A DNA stretch of 60,900 nucleotides from Bdellovibrionales bacterium (lineage in GTDB: Bacteria > Bdellovibrionota > Bdellovibrionia > Bdellovibrionales > UBA1609): assembly GCA_038144835.1 (NCBI GenBank), contig JAYQON010000006.1, positions 1,959-62,858 of the forward strand, read 5' to 3'. The stretch's first letter is position 1. Every line of letters starts with the position of its first letter. Shown piece after piece: positions 1 through 6,083 of the stretch. The translations under genes were made by a program, and so were the position numbers. Under the pieces are notes generated by a model, which had not been told where the DNA came from, did not search any database, and worked only from the letters and a program-made list of their open reading frames with translations.

Positions 1-48
1 CTTTGCGGCTACTCAATGGCTAACTTTGCATCCTAATAAACCTGTTTA

Positions 49-83
49 AAGGCCATTAACGCTTTGTGTTAATGGCTTTTTTT
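49..83 (+). terminator. Intrinsic terminator upstream of the flagellin 1 promoter
   Basis: AAGGCCATTAAC-loop-GTTAATGGCTTT stem running into a T-tract. Confidence 0.75.
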
Positions 84-173
84 GGGGTCTTGCGAAAAAA
101 AAATTTCAACTCAGTTTTTTCCTAATATCAAATACTAGACGCGTCGCAATAATTGAAAAACTAGACCAAAGGC

Positions 174-200
174 TAAAGCTTCCTAGACCAAGGTCGATAA
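174..200 (+). promoter_or_regulatory. sigma28 (FliA) promoter of flagellin 1
   Basis: TAAA(174-177)-N15-GTCGATAA(193-200), near-consensus TAAA-N15-GCCGATAA, upstream of a flagellin. Confidence 0.8.
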
Positions 201-438
201 GACTCCTGAACACGTTGGAGCACTCGAAGCGAGTTCATTTCAGCAGTCACTGTGATGAGCCCGTCTAGAACTCCGAAGGCGTAGGGACAGTCACCCCTTC
301 GCCTTTGGGGGCCTCCAATAAACTAAAACAATTTAACCCGAAAGGGATGTCCTGTTCATCTTACCGTCGGCCGGACGCTGGCTGTGGGGGTGGGTTGAGC
401 AGCGGTCTTAAGGAAGGGCCAATATTCAGGAGGCCACC
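201..438 (+). promoter_or_regulatory. Long structured 5' leader of flagellin 1
   Basis: ~230 nt with several stems (CTCCGAAGGCGTAGGG/CCCTTCGCCTTTGGGG, CCC-GAAA-GGG, CTGTTCA/TGAGCAG); CTCCTGAA 203-210 can pair with the SD region TTCAGGAG 425-432. Confidence 0.6.
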
Positions 439-1269
439 ATGGGCTTAAGGATCAGTACCAACCTTGCGTCGGTATCGGCGCAAAGAGTTCTTACGAAGCA
501 GCAGCATCGCTTGGAGCATGCGCAACAGGCTCTCGCTTCAGGATCTCGAATCGTCAAAGCGGCGGACGATGCTGCCGGATTAGCAATTTCCGAAAATCTG
601 CGTGCTCAGGTCGCGGGTATCAAAATGGCTCGTAATAACGCCTACAATGCGCAGTCGTTGATTCAGGTTTCAGAAGGTGGTCTTAACGAAATCTCAAATA
701 TCTTAATTCGCTTGCGAGAGTTGGGTGTGCAGGCGGCGTCGGATACGGTCAGTAATGTTGAGAGATCATTTCTTGATCAAGAAGCGCAGCAGCTTATCAG
801 TGAAACTGATCGGATTGCTCGTTCCACCCGCTTTGGCAATATGCCTCTTCTGAGTGGTGCCGGGGAAGAGTTGGAATACCATGTGGGTGCCTTTTCAGAT
901 GAAAACGAAAACGTGATTCGCTACAAAATAACTGCTGATGCCACAGCGTCAAAACTGGGCATTGACTCTGTCTCAATTGCCGGCAAACAAGATGCTCGTT
1001 CAACCCTTGAGGCCGTAGATGCCGCGCTTGTGCAAATTGGTCAAATGCGCTCGGACTTCGGCGCTGTTCAAAGCCGATTGCTTATGACCACGAGCAATTT
1101 AGATATTCAAAACGAAAATTTACAAGGTGCTAAATCACGAATTTCAGATGCGGACATAGCTTTTGAAACGGCGGAAATGAACTCCGCGCAAATTTTGCAA
1201 GCGGCTTCGGTGGGAGTCCTTGCGCAAGCCAATCAAAACGGTGTGTCCGCATTGAAACTCATTGGCTAG
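439..1269 (+). CDS. fliC: Flagellin (paralog 1), 276 aa
   Basis: Flagellin N-terminal (ASGSRIVKAADDAAGLAISE) and C-terminal (SRISDADIAFE) motifs; SD AGGAGG. Confidence 0.97.
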   Translation: MGLRISTNLASVSAQRVLTKQQHRLEHAQQALASGSRIVKAADDAAGLAISENLRAQVAGIKMARNNAYNAQSLIQVSEGGLNEISNILIRLRELGVQAASDTVSNVERSFLDQEAQQLISETDRIARSTRFGNMPLLSGAGEELEYHVGAFSDENENVIRYKITADATASKLGIDSVSIAGKQDARSTLEAVDAALVQIGQMRSDFGAVQSRLLMTTSNLDIQNENLQGAKSRISDADIAFETAEMNSAQILQAASVGVLAQANQNGVSALKLIG

Positions 1270-1370
1270 CAAGTTGAATTTGTTTTTGAATGCGGATCTT
1301 TTTGACAGCCTTTGTAGATACGGCCGAGAAAAAGAAACGCTCGATATAATTTTAAACCATCTTAGAGTTT

Positions 1371-1447
1371 AGGGTCGTCGCCCACAGACTAGCGACCCTT
1401 AAGCCCGCCCTGGGGTTGCCCCACACACCCCAGGGTATTTTGTTTTC
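1371..1447 (+). ncRNA. Two-hairpin element ending in an intrinsic terminator (candidate sRNA or fliC1 trailer)
   Basis: AGGGTCG/CGACCCT and CCCTGGGGT/ACCCCAGGG stems, both loops contain CCCACA, followed by TATTTTGTTTT; TATAAT at 1345-1350. Confidence 0.45.
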
Positions 1448-1660
1448 TCCTCAAGCTATCCAAAATTTTTCCATTTTTTTAAAATTCAAAAAATTTTTGG
1501 CATTTTACTTTTCTAAACTTAGACCAACGTCGCTTGGTAAATCGTCGAGGAGACTTTGGTCTGAACATCACAAGTCATCAATTCGCTCCGATTTGAAATA
1601 AAAAAGCCCAACCTTGGTCTAGTTTCACCGCGACCATGGTCCAGTTTTCCAGGACTCGAC

Positions 1661-1687
1661 TTTAGTTCGCCCCGACCTGGCCGAACT
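1661..1687 (+). promoter_or_regulatory. Probable sigma28 promoter of flagellin 2
   Basis: TTTA-N15-GCCGAACT. Confidence 0.55.
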
Positions 1688-1913
1688 ACTAGGCAAGCAA
1701 GCGAAGCGGTCATTGGATCCGCCAGAGGTGAGAGTGCATTGGGAGTGACTGCCTGATGATAACTCGATCGAAGCTTCTGAGCGATATTCAGTTTCTGCTC
1801 CAACGTGTTCAACCAAGGCGCAGGGATGCGACGCTTCTCCACGATTTGTCCCCGAGTAGGTTCGGGGCGGGGGAGTCAGGCGAAGGGAGCCTAAACAAAA
1901 AAGGGAGGACCCT

Positions 1914-2744
1914 ATGGGTCTGAGGATTACCACAAACTTAGCCTCCATCTCCGCGCAGCGGTCGATGGCAGGCAGTCAGCGAGAAATCAATAAAAGTTTC
2001 TCGCAACTCGCTTCGGGAAGCCGAATTACAAAAGCGTCAGACGACGCTGCCGGTCTCTCTATTAGCGAAACCTTAAAATCCACTGTCCGCGGCTACGTGC
2101 AATCGCAACGTAATGCCAACGATGGTATGTCCATGGTCCAAGTTTCCGAAGGTGGACTGGGAGAGATTTCCAACATCCTGACGCGCATGCGTGAATTGGG
2201 TGTGCAAGCCGCTTCGGATACGGTTGGTGATACCGAGCGTGGTTTCATCGACAAAGAAGTGCAGCAGTTAAAGTTGGAGGTTCAGCGTATCGCCAAAACC
2301 ACCAAGTGGGGTGGATCGAACTTGCTGGATGGCTCTGGAAGTAACTACACATTTCAAGTTGATTTAAATAACGATGAATTTAATGACCGCATCGGCTTTG
2401 ATGCCAGCCAACAAGATGCAACCGTAGACACTTTGGGAATTTCGGGATTCGACTTTTCTGACCGAGCTGGTGCTCGTGAGGCGATTGAGATTCTTGAAAC
2501 CGCTCAACGTCAGGTGAATGGTTATCGCGCCAATTTGGGTGCGATTCAGAACCGACTAATGTCGACGGCGGACAACTTGGGTGTTGCGATTGAGAACTTC
2601 TCAGCGGCCAACTCTCGTATTCGAGATACTGATGTAGCTCAAAGTTCGGCCGAGTTAGCTCGCAACAACATCTTACTCAATGCGAGTGTGGGTGTGATGG
2701 CGCAAGCGAATAACCAGCCCGCAATGGCTTTGAAACTGATTTAA
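1914..2744 (+). CDS. fliC: Flagellin (paralog 2), 276 aa
   Basis: Flagellin N- and C-terminal motifs; SD GGGAGG. Confidence 0.97.
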   Translation: MGLRITTNLASISAQRSMAGSQREINKSFSQLASGSRITKASDDAAGLSISETLKSTVRGYVQSQRNANDGMSMVQVSEGGLGEISNILTRMRELGVQAASDTVGDTERGFIDKEVQQLKLEVQRIAKTTKWGGSNLLDGSGSNYTFQVDLNNDEFNDRIGFDASQQDATVDTLGISGFDFSDRAGAREAIEILETAQRQVNGYRANLGAIQNRLMSTADNLGVAIENFSAANSRIRDTDVAQSSAELARNNILLNASVGVMAQANNQPAMALKLI

Positions 2745-2769
2745 ATGATTCTTTAAGAGTATGTGTAAT

Positions 2770-2836
2770 GGAGGGCGTTCTCCTTCGCCCTCCGGTACCT
2801 TACCTACCCGGAGGATCTTCGTGTTCTCCGGGGTAC
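2770..2836 (+). ncRNA. Conserved two-hairpin 3' trailer motif (copy after flagellin 2)
   Basis: GGAGGGCG-TTCTCCTT-CGCCCTCC, then CCTTACCT and a CCCGGAGGA/TTCTCCGGG stem; same architecture recurs at 4081-4163. Confidence 0.5.
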
Positions 2837-3029
2837 TAAGGACACGCCTTTCAACCGTTTAACCTAGATCTATAAAAGGTCTACGAAGACAATGGTTGAG
2901 GTGTCTTAGGTCCGAGAGACTTTCATCGCAAGACTGATCCTCAGTCTTGAAAAAGCCCACTTAGGTCGCGAATTCCGCGACTGAAGTCCGGTTTTTATAT
3001 GCCTTTAGTCCAGATTCACCAGACGAGAC

Positions 3030-3056
3030 TTAAGCCTTCACCAGACTCGCCGATTG
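3030..3056 (+). promoter_or_regulatory. sigma28 promoter of flagellin 3
   Basis: TTAA-N15-GCCGATTG. Confidence 0.7.
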
Positions 3057-3228
3057 TTCTGGTGTGTGAGGCGCAGGACCTAGCCGTCCAGTGCCTCATT
3101 TAAAAAACAATAACCTAAAGCTCACGGATTGAATTGAGCTCTCCGGAAATAAGCTGAGTAGGTACGGCTTTATCCGGTGAGAGAGGGATTTCTTTGACTA
3201 AGCGCCCGTTGGCGCAAAGGAGAACACC

Positions 3229-4059
3229 ATGGGATTACGTGTAACAACAAATATTGCATCGATCAACGCGCAGAGATCGATGGCTGGCTCGCAGAGAGAA
3301 ATCACTAAGAGCTTCGCACAGTTGTCTTCCGGCAGCCGTATCACCAAAGCGGCTGACGATGCCGCTGGTCTGTCAATTAGTGAAACTTTAAAGAGCACAA
3401 TTCGTGGCTACAATCAGGCGCAACGTAACGCCAGTGATGCCATGTCCATGGTAGCTGTTGCTGAAGGTGGTCTTGGTGAGATTTCAAACATCTTAACTCG
3501 TCTACGTGAACTTGGTGTCCAGGCTTCCTCAGACACGGTTGGCGACACCGAAAGAAAGTTTATTGACAGTGAAGTTCAGCAGCTCAAGCTTGAAGCTGAA
3601 CGTATCTCTCAGAGTACTAAATACGGAAAAACGACTCTCATTAACGGTCAGGGTGAAAAGTTCGAGTTCCAAGTAGATATTAATAACGACGACTTCGTCG
3701 ATCGCATTGGCTTCCACCCCAGTGAAATTGATGCCACGACTAACAATCTGGGAATCTCGGGTTTCGACTTTTCGGATAAATTCCAAGCGCGCGAATCTCT
3801 CGAGGTCCTGGAAGAAGCTCAACGCACCGTCAACGGTCATCGCGCCACTCTCGGTGCGATTCAGAACCGATTAGTTTCAACTTCTGAAAATCTGGGTGTG
3901 GCTATCGAGAACTTTTCAGGAGCGAATTCACGTATCCGCGACACTGACATCGCTCAAAGCTCCTCGGAGTTGACACGCAATAATATTCTTCTGAACGCGA
4001 CGGTGGGTGTGTTGGCCCAGGCCAATCAGGCTCCATCTGCGGCTCTGAAGCTTCTCTAA
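3229..4059 (+). CDS. fliC: Flagellin (paralog 3), 276 aa
   Basis: Flagellin motifs; highly similar to paralog 2; SD AAGGAG. Confidence 0.97.
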   Translation: MGLRVTTNIASINAQRSMAGSQREITKSFAQLSSGSRITKAADDAAGLSISETLKSTIRGYNQAQRNASDAMSMVAVAEGGLGEISNILTRLRELGVQASSDTVGDTERKFIDSEVQQLKLEAERISQSTKYGKTTLINGQGEKFEFQVDINNDDFVDRIGFHPSEIDATTNNLGISGFDFSDKFQARESLEVLEEAQRTVNGHRATLGAIQNRLVSTSENLGVAIENFSGANSRIRDTDIAQSSSELTRNNILLNATVGVLAQANQAPSAALKLL

Positions 4060-4080
4060 TTTTAATATTGAATTTGATTC

Positions 4081-4163
4081 GCGGGAGATTGAGTTCTCCG
4101 TCTCCCGTGAGCCTTACCTTCCCCGGGAGGAATTCTGTAAAGGACAACTTCCGGGGTGCTTTT
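4081..4163 (+). ncRNA. Conserved two-hairpin 3' trailer motif / terminator (copy after flagellin 3)
   Basis: GCGGGAGA-(loop with GTTCTCC)-TCTCCCGT, CCTTACCT, CCCCGG..CCGGGG stem, then TTTT. Confidence 0.5.
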
Positions 4164-4202
4164 GTTGGTAAGTAAACCAATTTTTTAGGAAGTAAATCTC
4201 GT

Positions 4203-4808
4203 ATGAGACTCAACCAAAAAATTTTTCTTCTTATCTTGACGGTGCAAGTTGTGAATATTCACGCTACCAGTTTAAAAAAGGCCCACATCAAGGCGGGAAT
4301 TTATACCAACGGCAAATGTATTGTGATCGTGGAGCAAGACAAGCAAGGCAACCCTTTTGTAGAAATCGTGATGGCGTCTGATAAGCGAGCAAAGCTGTGC
4401 GACTCAGATGTGGATAAAGATTGCGGCGATATTCAAATACCGATTCGTCCAAGAATTACAGATCGAGGGGTAAACGATTTTTCTCTTTACCCGCGCAAAG
4501 TCGTGGAAAAAAATTTTCAAAGGAAGTCAGATGGCGCTATTGAAGTGACATTTGAGTCAAAAGAACAAAATGCTCTCATTTTCAATATTCATCACAGTCA
4601 GCTTTCACTCACGCTCAACGCTCACGGGCAGGTGACCGATGCGGCGGGTATGTGGGCGTTGGCCGAGGGTCGCTTTTCTGGATTAAAAATTTACTCTCGT
4701 GTGGTGGACCGCTGTAAGGGTCTCAAAGAGGATTCGCCTGCCGACCAGTCCGACCTGCCAAAGCCGAATAACCCTTCATCAAAACAGGATGTTAAAATTT
4801 CGCGTTGA
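4203..4808 (+). CDS. Hypothetical exported protein
   Basis: 201-aa ORF with an N-terminal hydrophobic signal-like segment and 4 Cys. Confidence 0.7.
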   Translation: MRLNQKIFLLILTVQVVNIHATSLKKAHIKAGIYTNGKCIVIVEQDKQGNPFVEIVMASDKRAKLCDSDVDKDCGDIQIPIRPRITDRGVNDFSLYPRKVVEKNFQRKSDGAIEVTFESKEQNALIFNIHHSQLSLTLNAHGQVTDAAGMWALAEGRFSGLKIYSRVVDRCKGLKEDSPADQSDLPKPNNPSSKQDVKISR

Positions 4809-4901
4809 AGGACCTGATAGGATTATTATCTTGGCATCACAAATGCTTCTGTGATTTGCAAAGATCTAATGCCTACTCATTCAAAATAGGAAAAGGTCCA
4901 A

Positions 4902-6083
4902 GTGAACTTCTTTCAACTCTCTGTACAAAGATTAGCCATACCCTTGTGTCTAACGACAATCCTTAGTGGGCCACCTCTGGCTTTAGCTCAGTCAAAGGAT
5001 GATTGTGAAAAGGCACTGATTGCGAGTCGTTCTCTGCCTCTTACAAAAGATGTGGTTATTAAAACCATTTTGGCTCTACGAGATAACGGCCATCCTATAA
5101 ACCACAAAGCGATGGAGAGAGGTCGAAGCCCCGAGTCAAGGGAGGTGATTGGCTCGATTGTAGGCCGTCCCTTTTATTCTAAAACAATCCTTAAAGCTGG
5201 AGAAAGGGAGTTTGGAGGTTGGGATAAGGCGCTTGTGGCTGCGGGAATAGATCCCAAAACCGTTCGTATTCGTAAGCCCAGTGTTCCTTTGTCAGAGTTG
5301 AATCTGATTGCCATAGTTCAGCGGCTCAATGAGTTAGGTATTCCATTGAGAGCTAGAGCCGTGGCCAGAGCTGGTAGCGACTTTGAGGAGCTCTGTCTGC
5401 GGGAGTTTGGTTACTCTCTTCAAGGTGATTCTTTGTACGCCGCTGCAGATATGTATCATGGAAGTTGGCAAAACCTTATGAAAGCTGCCGGTATTCCAAA
5501 AGATCGTTGGGAGCCAGAACGAAGTAAATGGACAAAGGCTCAGATCATTGCGGCCATTCAGGCTCTTCAAAGCTCGGGAGTCAAACTGCACATTGGATTT
5601 TTTAGACGTGACCTAGAGGGAAAGGTTAAAAAAACATTATTGGCAAAAATTGGTAGAGCTTCAAGTGGTGCCGGGCTGTACCAGGCCGCATTGGTTCATT
5701 TTGGAGGTTGGTCAGAGGCATTGAAAGCGGCTGGGCTTGATCCGAGTTTGTATGTGATCTGGAGTAAAAAGACTAAATTCGGACAAACGGGTGAAGATGC
5801 ACTTAACGAGGAAGAAGAAGATGAGTTGAATTCTATTTCTCCAGAATTTCGCAATGTTACCGATGAAAAGGTAATCGCGACTTTGATTCGATTACATCGA
5901 GCTTCGGTGAATCTCTTTCCAGATAATTTTTTGCTCGATGATTCCTCTCTTACAGCAAAGATTCTAGAAGAAACTTTGGGTGTAAGAGTCACCACCTCTC
6001 AATTCTATTATCATGTTAAATGGCGTTTCTGGGGCTGGGCCGAAGCACTTGCGGAAGCTAAAATATTTTTGAATCGGTATTGA
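4902..6083 (+). CDS. Exported protein with homing-endonuclease-associated (FGxWxxALxAAG) repeats
   Basis: Signal peptide ending ALA; four repeats ending FGGWDKALVAAG, HGSWQNLMKAAG, FGGWSEALKAAG, FWGWAEALAEAK. Confidence 0.75.
   Translation: MNFFQLSVQRLAIPLCLTTILSGPPLALAQSKDDCEKALIASRSLPLTKDVVIKTILALRDNGHPINHKAMERGRSPESREVIGSIVGRPFYSKTILKAGEREFGGWDKALVAAGIDPKTVRIRKPSVPLSELNLIAIVQRLNELGIPLRARAVARAGSDFEELCLREFGYSLQGDSLYAAADMYHGSWQNLMKAAGIPKDRWEPERSKWTKAQIIAAIQALQSSGVKLHIGFFRRDLEGKVKKTLLAKIGRASSGAGLYQAALVHFGGWSEALKAAGLDPSLYVIWSKKTKFGQTGEDALNEEEEDELNSISPEFRNVTDEKVIATLIRLHRASVNLFPDNFLLDDSSLTAKILEETLGVRVTTSQFYYHVKWRFWGWAEALAEAKIFLNRY

Follow-up and report, generated by a model that had tools for sequence, protein, structure and literature searches.

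A trailer RNA behind flagellin genes has a described counterpart in FlaX of Vibrio cholerae, which likewise stems from a flagellin 3′ untranslated region (UTR) and pairs at multiple sites with the 5′ UTR of a paralogous flagellin, including its ribosome binding site (RBS). FlaX tunes filament composition and timing, and is described as an RNA of ∼265 nt that is bound by ProQ, processed by RNase E, and mainly directed at the paralogue (PMC11879080). The trailer reported here is set apart from it by description, being ∼70-85 nt long, having one loop and one bulge, and co-evolving first with its own gene. E. coli FliX originates from the 3′ end of fliC and lowers the mRNA and protein of its own flagellin (PMC10578931), as we propose for the trailer. 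According to that report, FliX binds Hfq and its pairing sites are within coding sequences, whereas the predicted sites of the trailer are a leader loop plus the Shine-Dalgarno (SD) sequence, and hfq was not found: PF17209 had no match in the 100%-complete genome under study, in a search that was positive in 5 of 14 controls.

Further parallels come from RNAs of other genes. In Staphylococcus aureus icaR, a C-rich 3′ UTR word faces the SD of the same gene, the accessible text of that report leaving cis or trans action open (PMC3868564); the trailer likewise has a 3′ UTR word that is complementary to its own SD when tested as sequence. Whereas icaR involves one site, a long UTR, and one gene, the trailer has two structured seeds, shows compensatory change across an order, and appears to reach paralogues. 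RNAIII contacts rot and coa through C-rich loops at two places, the RBS and a hairpin loop, as predicted for the trailer, but is an unrelated RNA with a large regulon (PMC2837412), while the trailer is compact and tied to flagellin genes. Finally, the B. subtilis hbs mRNA forms a duplex between its own 5′ and 3′ UTRs, as proposed here; the hbs duplex comprises 14 bp and shields a cleavage site (PMC5737220), whereas the trailer seed would cover the SD instead.

Flagellin genes, promoters and leaders

The window, that is, the whole analyzed stretch of 60,900 nucleotides, belongs to a genome of 3.14 Mb with seven flagellin genes (Z, A, B, C, D, E, and F). Flagellins A (439-1269, +), B (1914-2744, +), and C (3229-4059, +), recognized by flagellin matches, lie in the window, Z is located just upstream of its start, and D, E, and F are found elsewhere in the genome. 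B and C both encode 276 aa and are duplicates of the same type with 75% identity. From gene arrangement (gaps of 1.1-1.3 kb between A and B and of 0.4-0.6 kb between F and E), length, and C-termini, we infer that A corresponds to FliC1, B and C to FliC2, D to FliC5, and F to FliC3. The labels fliC2 and fliC3 that the original prediction gave to B and C are thus ordinal only, both genes being copies of one, probably FliC2-like, paralogue type. The single filament of Bdellovibrio consists of ordered blocks of six flagellins, in the order FliC3, FliC5, FliC1, FliC2, FliC6, with FliC2 as a minor component (PMC2791853).

Promoters of the σ28 (FliA) type are predicted, by eye, upstream of A, B, and C. 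That of B (1661-1687, +) was read against the consensus TTAAG-N16-CCGATA (PMC3627812), and that of C (3030-3057, +) lies 3′ of trailer B, with a consensus match 198 nt after its stem. In B. bacteriovorus, fliC2 is reported to be an operon of one gene with a FliA promoter and a leader of 164 nt (PMC3627812). Words of the type CTAGACC/CTGGACC/GGTCTAG are repeated around the flagellin promoters (161-195, 1519-1527, 1611-1625, and homologous loci) and are possible transcription factor sites.

A leader hairpin whose loop reads GUAGGU, located ∼40-90 nt 5′ of the start codon and followed by the SD, is kept across the order. In gene B this hairpin (1850-1867, +), predicted target site 1, has a loop that is open in the fold, and the SD region (1898-1913, +), predicted target site 2, would form 9 bp with the trailer, including 2 G-U pairs (GTTCTCCTT/AGGGAGGAC). 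Gene C carries a hairpin with a AGUAGGUA loop (3150-3171, +), as judged from sequence and local fold, and an SD region (3215-3228, +) that would form 9 Watson-Crick pairs with trailer B and 7 with trailer C. Hairpins with GGA loops, typical of CsrA sites, are also seen in these leaders (1818-1831, 3119-3140, 3181-3196) and in those of D, E, and F; csrA and fliW are present and adjacent in the genome (G000:C42). The window also contains a long hairpin between trailer B and the gene C promoter (2843-2909), a 201-aa open reading frame (4203-4808) without a Pfam match, and a 393-aa open reading frame with a homing-endonuclease-associated repeat (PF18780; 4902-6083).

Architecture and distribution of the trailer

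The trailer is a structured RNA of ∼70-85 nt located 3′ of FliC2-type flagellin genes across the Bdellovibrionales. It comprises a hairpin, P1, with a pyrimidine CUCC(U) loop, then an outer helix, then a bulge (UU)ACCUA(C) on an inner stem. Behind gene B, P1 (2770-2793, +) has a loop TTCTCCTT (2778-2785) that is fully unpaired in the local fold and forms the predicted anti-SD seed. The bulged stem (2794-2837, +) combines an outer helix GGTAC/GTACT (2794-2798 with 2833-2837), an inner stem (2807-2832), and the bulge CTTACCTA (2799-2806), the predicted anti-leader-loop seed. Absent from the original prediction, the outer helix makes CTTACCTA a bulge in the comparative model; in a single-sequence fold, only the 3′ half of this bulge is open. 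Trailer C consists of P1 (4078-4111, +), which presents the anti-SD seed GTTCTCC against its own SD GGAGAAC, and a 3′ part (4112-4163, +) with the seed CCTTACCTT, a stem (4121-4156), and a terminator-like U-rich tail, matching the covariance model described below with 35 bits. In the 8 nt after the stem, trailer C has 6 T and trailer B at most 2, that is, no U-tract.

Every sequence word quoted in the original prediction is present where it was placed. The proposed recurrence of one layout behind both genes holds on a genome scale, since the pattern TTCTCC-N(5-25)-CCTTACCT, sought on both strands throughout the 3.14 Mb sequence, occurs twice in total, and only here; as claimed, the P1 sequence differs between the copies while its pairing is kept. 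TACCTAC (2801-2807) indeed complements GTAGGT (1856-1861) and GTAGGTA (3158-3164). Two exact complements of the gene C RBS had been put forward, and both exist: 2777-2785 (GTTCTCCTT) against 3217-3225, and 2821-2829 against 3219-3227. The second was rejected as a free anti-SD seed, because it forms the inner stem's 3′ arm, with 7 of 9 bases paired, and this arm co-varies with its partner strand.

Relatives provided 224 distinct full flagellin genes, 119 of which fall in the B/C clade. Trailers were parsed in 79 of these 119; of the others, 9 were set aside manually because they looked atypical, 2 had no hairpin, and the rest lacked an anchor or folded weakly. In the parsed homologues, the P1 stem reaches at least 7 bp in 70 of 79 (mean 9.0, against 6.0 in shuffled sequences) and the outer helix at least 4 bp in 68 of 79, its type GGUAC/GUACU being replaced in some copies by, for example, GGAAC/GTTCT or GATAC/GTATT. 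The inner stem shows two-sided changes in 8 of 8 pairs, with 94.6% of cells paired in a model-fitted alignment. A covariance model was built from 68 sequences, with the inner stem alone encoded as pairs. The search across the phylum that had been suggested was run with strict filters, under which the lack of a match does not equal absence: 15 of 141 genomes matched, namely the own genome, 14 of 21 others of the same order, and 0 of 119 from other orders. All 26 held-out matches that were checked sit 3′ of flagellin genes, 25 of the B/C type and one of the A type, the latter trailer being picked up at E 0.0036; four weak partial matches were also obtained.

The trailer lies in a flagellin 3′ UTR without a σ28 promoter of its own in the sequence scan: the consensus was found just upstream in 0 of 79 cases, other promoter types having been scanned within the window alone. 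Most B-type copies lack a U-tract, with at least 5 T in the 8 nt after the stem in 18 of 62 (30 of 79 overall), and C-type copies end in U-tracts. A σ70 and terminator scan of the window performed at chance level and listed neither trailer as a terminator. Rfam yielded no family for positions 1-5000, its three matches (best E 0.9) all falling far below gathering, and a literature search, which covered few subscription papers, found no description of the motif. The trailer is a real RNA family, undescribed in the literature searched, that would work like FlaX and icaR and is a member of neither. In one freshwater metatranscriptome (contigs only, word share 0.16), near-identical pieces cover 223-562, 777-942, and 1991-2460, and none the trailers.

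Co-variation of the seeds with the own leader

The leader sites, first the GUAGGU loop and then the SD, are antiparallel and nested relative to the loop and bulge of the trailer. Across parsed loci, the Watson-Crick excess between SD and trailer loop amounts to 55.8 in register and to at most 7.4 over 8 slid registers. When kinship was simulated on the tree, the SD-flank columns, which were picked after the results of the swap test and anchored on consensus words, gave 52.1 against a null of 0.6 ± 9.2, a value reached in 0 of 1500 simulations (p ∼0.0007). Distal control columns gave p = 0.37 in the same simulation, and the excess between leader loop and bulge was 19.6 (p ∼0.02). Rows mis-anchored by the automatic windows (for example L083_C40, L138, L159, and L114) were kept in all counts. 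Own-gene helices are also stronger than permuted ones (−13.5 against −11.4 ± 0.3 kcal/mol, a comparison that ignores kinship), and the apex of the inner stem, used as a control loop, shows no own-gene fit (z = +1.4).

Swaps between nearest relatives lean in the same direction. For SD and loop, the own partner won 22 v 11, 16 v 11, and 22 v 13, and with more differing columns 24 v 11 and 24 v 9; for leader loop and bulge, the counts were 23 v 12, 19 v 8, 21 v 10, 19 v 13, and 14 v 7. Disjoint swaps show the same lean throughout, reaching p < 0.05 in 2 of 10, and are weaker than the tree simulation. Individual genes illustrate the point, with gene-specific SD matches such as TTAGAGG/CCTCTAA, CCTAGGAGG/CCTCCTAGG, GGAGAAGTC/GACTTCTCC, and AGGGAGGAT/ATCCTCCCT, and leader-loop matches such as GTGGGTA/TACCCAC and AGGTTAGG/CCTAACCT. 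At the held-out locus L249 both seeds are altered yet matched (ATGGGTTAG/CTAACCCAT and AATGGAG/CTCCATT, 9 and 7 bp). Among 118 B/C-type genes, 93 have both leader loop and trailer, 14 the leader loop only, 2 the trailer only, and 9 neither, counts in which kin are non-independent and many of the 14 are, by eye, detector misses.

Pairing of the trailer with its own SD is therefore well supported as a prediction from co-variation, and pairing of the bulge with the leader loop is likely. Minimum-energy folds of the whole mRNA do not contain the two pairings; such folds cannot model kissing loops.

Sister elements of flagellin A

Flagellin A has a sister trailer (1371-1445, +) with the same hairpin-linker-stem layout, other seeds (GCCCACAGAC; AAGCCCGCCC), and a U-tail. 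It is conserved, and A-type trailers lie at +83 to +133, counted from the stop codon. The loop GCCCACAGAC matches GTCTGTGGGC in the Z leader, L176 offering a compensated version of 13 bp, and the linker matches the leader of A itself. No target of the A-type trailer was found within 200 nt among the flagellin leaders of genus g49. Several Z trailers carry GGGCGGGC.

The leaders are linked as well. That of A is complementary to that of B at two places (207-222 to 1796-1811, and 243-251 to 1744-1752), and the 14-nt element involved co-varies across 33 loci (12.7 Watson-Crick pairs against 11.7 permuted, without tree correction), which lends support to the original view of the trailer as a second layer of the same RNA network. 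A second element of the A leader (232-247) is complementary over 16 nt to the leader of Z (G000:C6, upstream of 1143) and appears conserved by eye.

In B. bacteriovorus, APsRNA3 maps upstream of fliC1 (Bd0604) and the 98-nt attack-phase APsRNA4 30 nt behind it (PMC3627812), flanking this gene where, by inferred orthology, the A-type leader element and trailer lie. On that orthology, the position of the 14-nt A-leader element matches APsRNA3 and the A-type trailer overlaps APsRNA4, so that the A-type trailer is likely a discrete sRNA. Both RNAs are reported by expression only, the accessible text giving neither targets nor a structure family, and its Table 2 lists no sRNA behind fliC2 (Bd0606), which counts against the mechanism proposed below; no follow-up paper on these attack-phase sRNAs was found in our literature search. 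The complementarities described here suggest roles for these two orphan sRNAs.

Possible paralogous targets, in cis or in trans

By sequence, the trailer also matches other flagellin mRNAs at their RBS. Two copies were parsed at 12 loci. At all 12 of these, the better fit of the downstream trailer is to its own leader, and at 8 of the 12, this window included, the upstream trailer fits the leader of its paralogue, the downstream gene, better. Since trailer B has no U-tract, read-through from B into C is possible, and the fit of trailer B to gene C could act within such a read-through RNA.

A cleaner case, with a candidate target farther away, comes from genus g49, where GUAGGUU occupies a variable-stem leader hairpin of the D-type gene in 17 of 17 genomes, a mis-stranded row (G009) having been left out, as against 0 of 12 D leaders in other genera. 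In genomes mapped for arrangement, this gene lies hundreds of kb from the trailer gene; the motif is absent from the three g49 D trailers inspected, and six g49 genomes yielded one model match each. Trailer B of g49 offers more Watson-Crick pairs to D than to its own gene: for the bulge this holds in 10 of 10 genomes, for the loop in 6 of 10, the remaining 4 being ties. All of this represents a single evolutionary event. These better fits to a distant, trailer-less FliC5-type leader and to the downstream paralogue would require action in trans.

A purely cis arrangement of the icaR kind, in which the tail of the finished mRNA folds onto its own leader as a closed loop and limits translation to nascent or ribosome-loaded message, seems rather unlikely to be the whole explanation. 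It would make paralogue fits leftovers of duplication or a matter of B-C read-through, and it accommodates much of the above: no partner is as constant as the own gene, every duplicate has retained a trailer that matches it, short-leader paralogues have lost both the trailer and the leader loop, no σ28 promoter precedes any parsed trailer, and further own-gene 5′-3′ matches recur in the flagellin family. It leaves unexplained, however, the GUAGGUU hairpin in distant D leaders and their better fit, and it sits poorly with an A-type trailer that matches the leader of another gene and that is mapped, by inferred orthology, as a separate sRNA, as well as with A and B leaders that co-vary between genes. 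The alternatives offered in the original prediction, 3′ UTR-derived sRNAs or 5′-3′ kissing, both gain support: co-variation with the own leader fits 5′-3′ pairing, paralogue fits call for trans action, and the two are compatible.

Proposed mechanism

With moderate confidence, we propose that the trailer binds the SD and the GUAGGU leader loop and so keeps ribosomes from loading onto its own mRNA and those of paralogous flagellins, at least partly in trans. That it silences its own and sister messages is made likely by the co-evolution of its seeds with their RBS and leader loop. The bulge would kiss the GUAGGU loop and the CUCC loop the SD, with Hfq being unneeded. Once docked, the trailer would cover the SD and exclude the 30S subunit, so that initiation is repressed and decay is probably faster. 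Each of these steps has a precedent, in the distal anti-SD words of B. subtilis (PMC12697547), in icaR, in the two contacts of RNAIII, and in FlaX and FliX. The unit may be active while part of the mRNA or, since no σ28 promoter precedes it, is likely released by processing, presumably in the AU-rich spacer. The outcome would be negative feedback on FliC2-type output and a shut-off of other flagellins, on top of CsrA/FliW control. Under this proposal the own mRNA would be the ancestral target, with paralogue targets gained in individual lineages. Control by CsrA/FliW probably extends to these leaders as well; CsrA of B. bacteriovorus is a repressor of hag when in B. subtilis (PMC13443453).

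In its boldest form, which we offer tentatively and regard as doubtful, the proposal extends to an Hfq-free RNA-RNA relay, in which re-programmed copies of one two-seed tail, together with an antisense RNA derived from a leader, would enable every flagellin message to silence both itself and the messages next to it in the series, writing the proximal-to-distal block order of the filament. The tail of a FliC2-type gene might, for instance, shut off the earlier FliC5-type gene.

Pairing could also be mainly non-repressive, serving nuclease protection as in hbs, competition with CsrA, or a flagellin mRNA complex for ordered, localized translation. The csrA and fliW genes, the GGA hairpin loops in the leaders (such as 1818-1831 and 3119-3140), the stabilization of hbs mRNA by its 5′-3′ duplex (PMC5737220), and the mutual complementarity of several flagellin leaders and tails are all in keeping with this; we nevertheless judge it improbable, as one of the seeds lies across the SD itself, with flanks particular to the gene, and SD-covering pairing lowered translation and stability both in B. 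subtilis, where distal anti-SD words were used (PMC12697547), and in icaR (PMC3868564). That the trailer is a terminator, nuclease barrier, protein-binding structure, or antisense-strand CsrA decoy with incidental complementarity is very improbable, for although U-tracts end C-type copies, the reverse strand would present AGGAG in a loop, and many SDs are matched by short C-rich words, the co-variation keeps register and does not extend beyond the predicted columns, few B-type copies have the T-run, and the sense strand folds more stably than the reverse (−69.0 against −55.0 and −48.9 against −36.2 kcal/mol).

If repression through the SD and leader loop is true, the trailer represents a rare bacterial 5′-3′ UTR interaction backed by evolutionary co-variation; the accessible part of the B. 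subtilis study lists only three reports of long-range interactions (PMC12697547). Flagellin 3′ UTR regulators would then have arisen independently outside the Gammaproteobacteria. The trailer may, moreover, help to determine the order of flagellar assembly, the basis of filament block order not being found explained in the literature searched. The proposal predicts exact, mutable base pairs in the culturable predator Bdellovibrio.

Target ranking and other candidates

Complementarity within this genome alone is modest, and the predicted pairings draw their support from the cross-genome comparison. Among 2662 predicted genes scored against the trailer at 2770, the gene at 3229 takes rank 9 and the trailer's own gene rank 29; for the trailer at 4081, its own gene takes rank 146. 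Eight non-flagellin genes score at least as high as any flagellin; 4 have Pfam matches (VWA-like below the cut-off, TetR, Dus, and ISL3 transposase) and 4 have none. None of the eight is flagellar, and as targets they were rejected as looking like chance.

Other candidates were discarded too. The AGGTAAG word in the D-type leader of the genus to which the window belongs was rejected as a bulge target because it is part of a stem of D itself and fails to follow the variants of the bulge, and GGGTAAG in the F-type leader is unconserved in relatives. A minus-strand decoy of the CsrB/RsmZ type would offer just a single GGA loop, and folding is better on the plus strand.

Other flagellin genes show own-gene matches of different sequence. 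The terminator loop CTCCTCTCA of flagellin D (G000:C11; L198-L208) matches GAGAGG in D's own leader, both being absent outside the genus of the window, and at L210 the D loop CCTCCGT matches its own SD. The short-leader second paralogues at L047, L048, L149, and L181 lack the motif and carry another own-gene pair, leader loop CCTCGAC with trailer loop GTCGAGG. Finally, F-type trailers (L218-L237) show a conserved TTTA(A/G)CTCAC and a downstream GTTTCCTGC word 3′ of FliC3-type genes, possibly another 3′ element.
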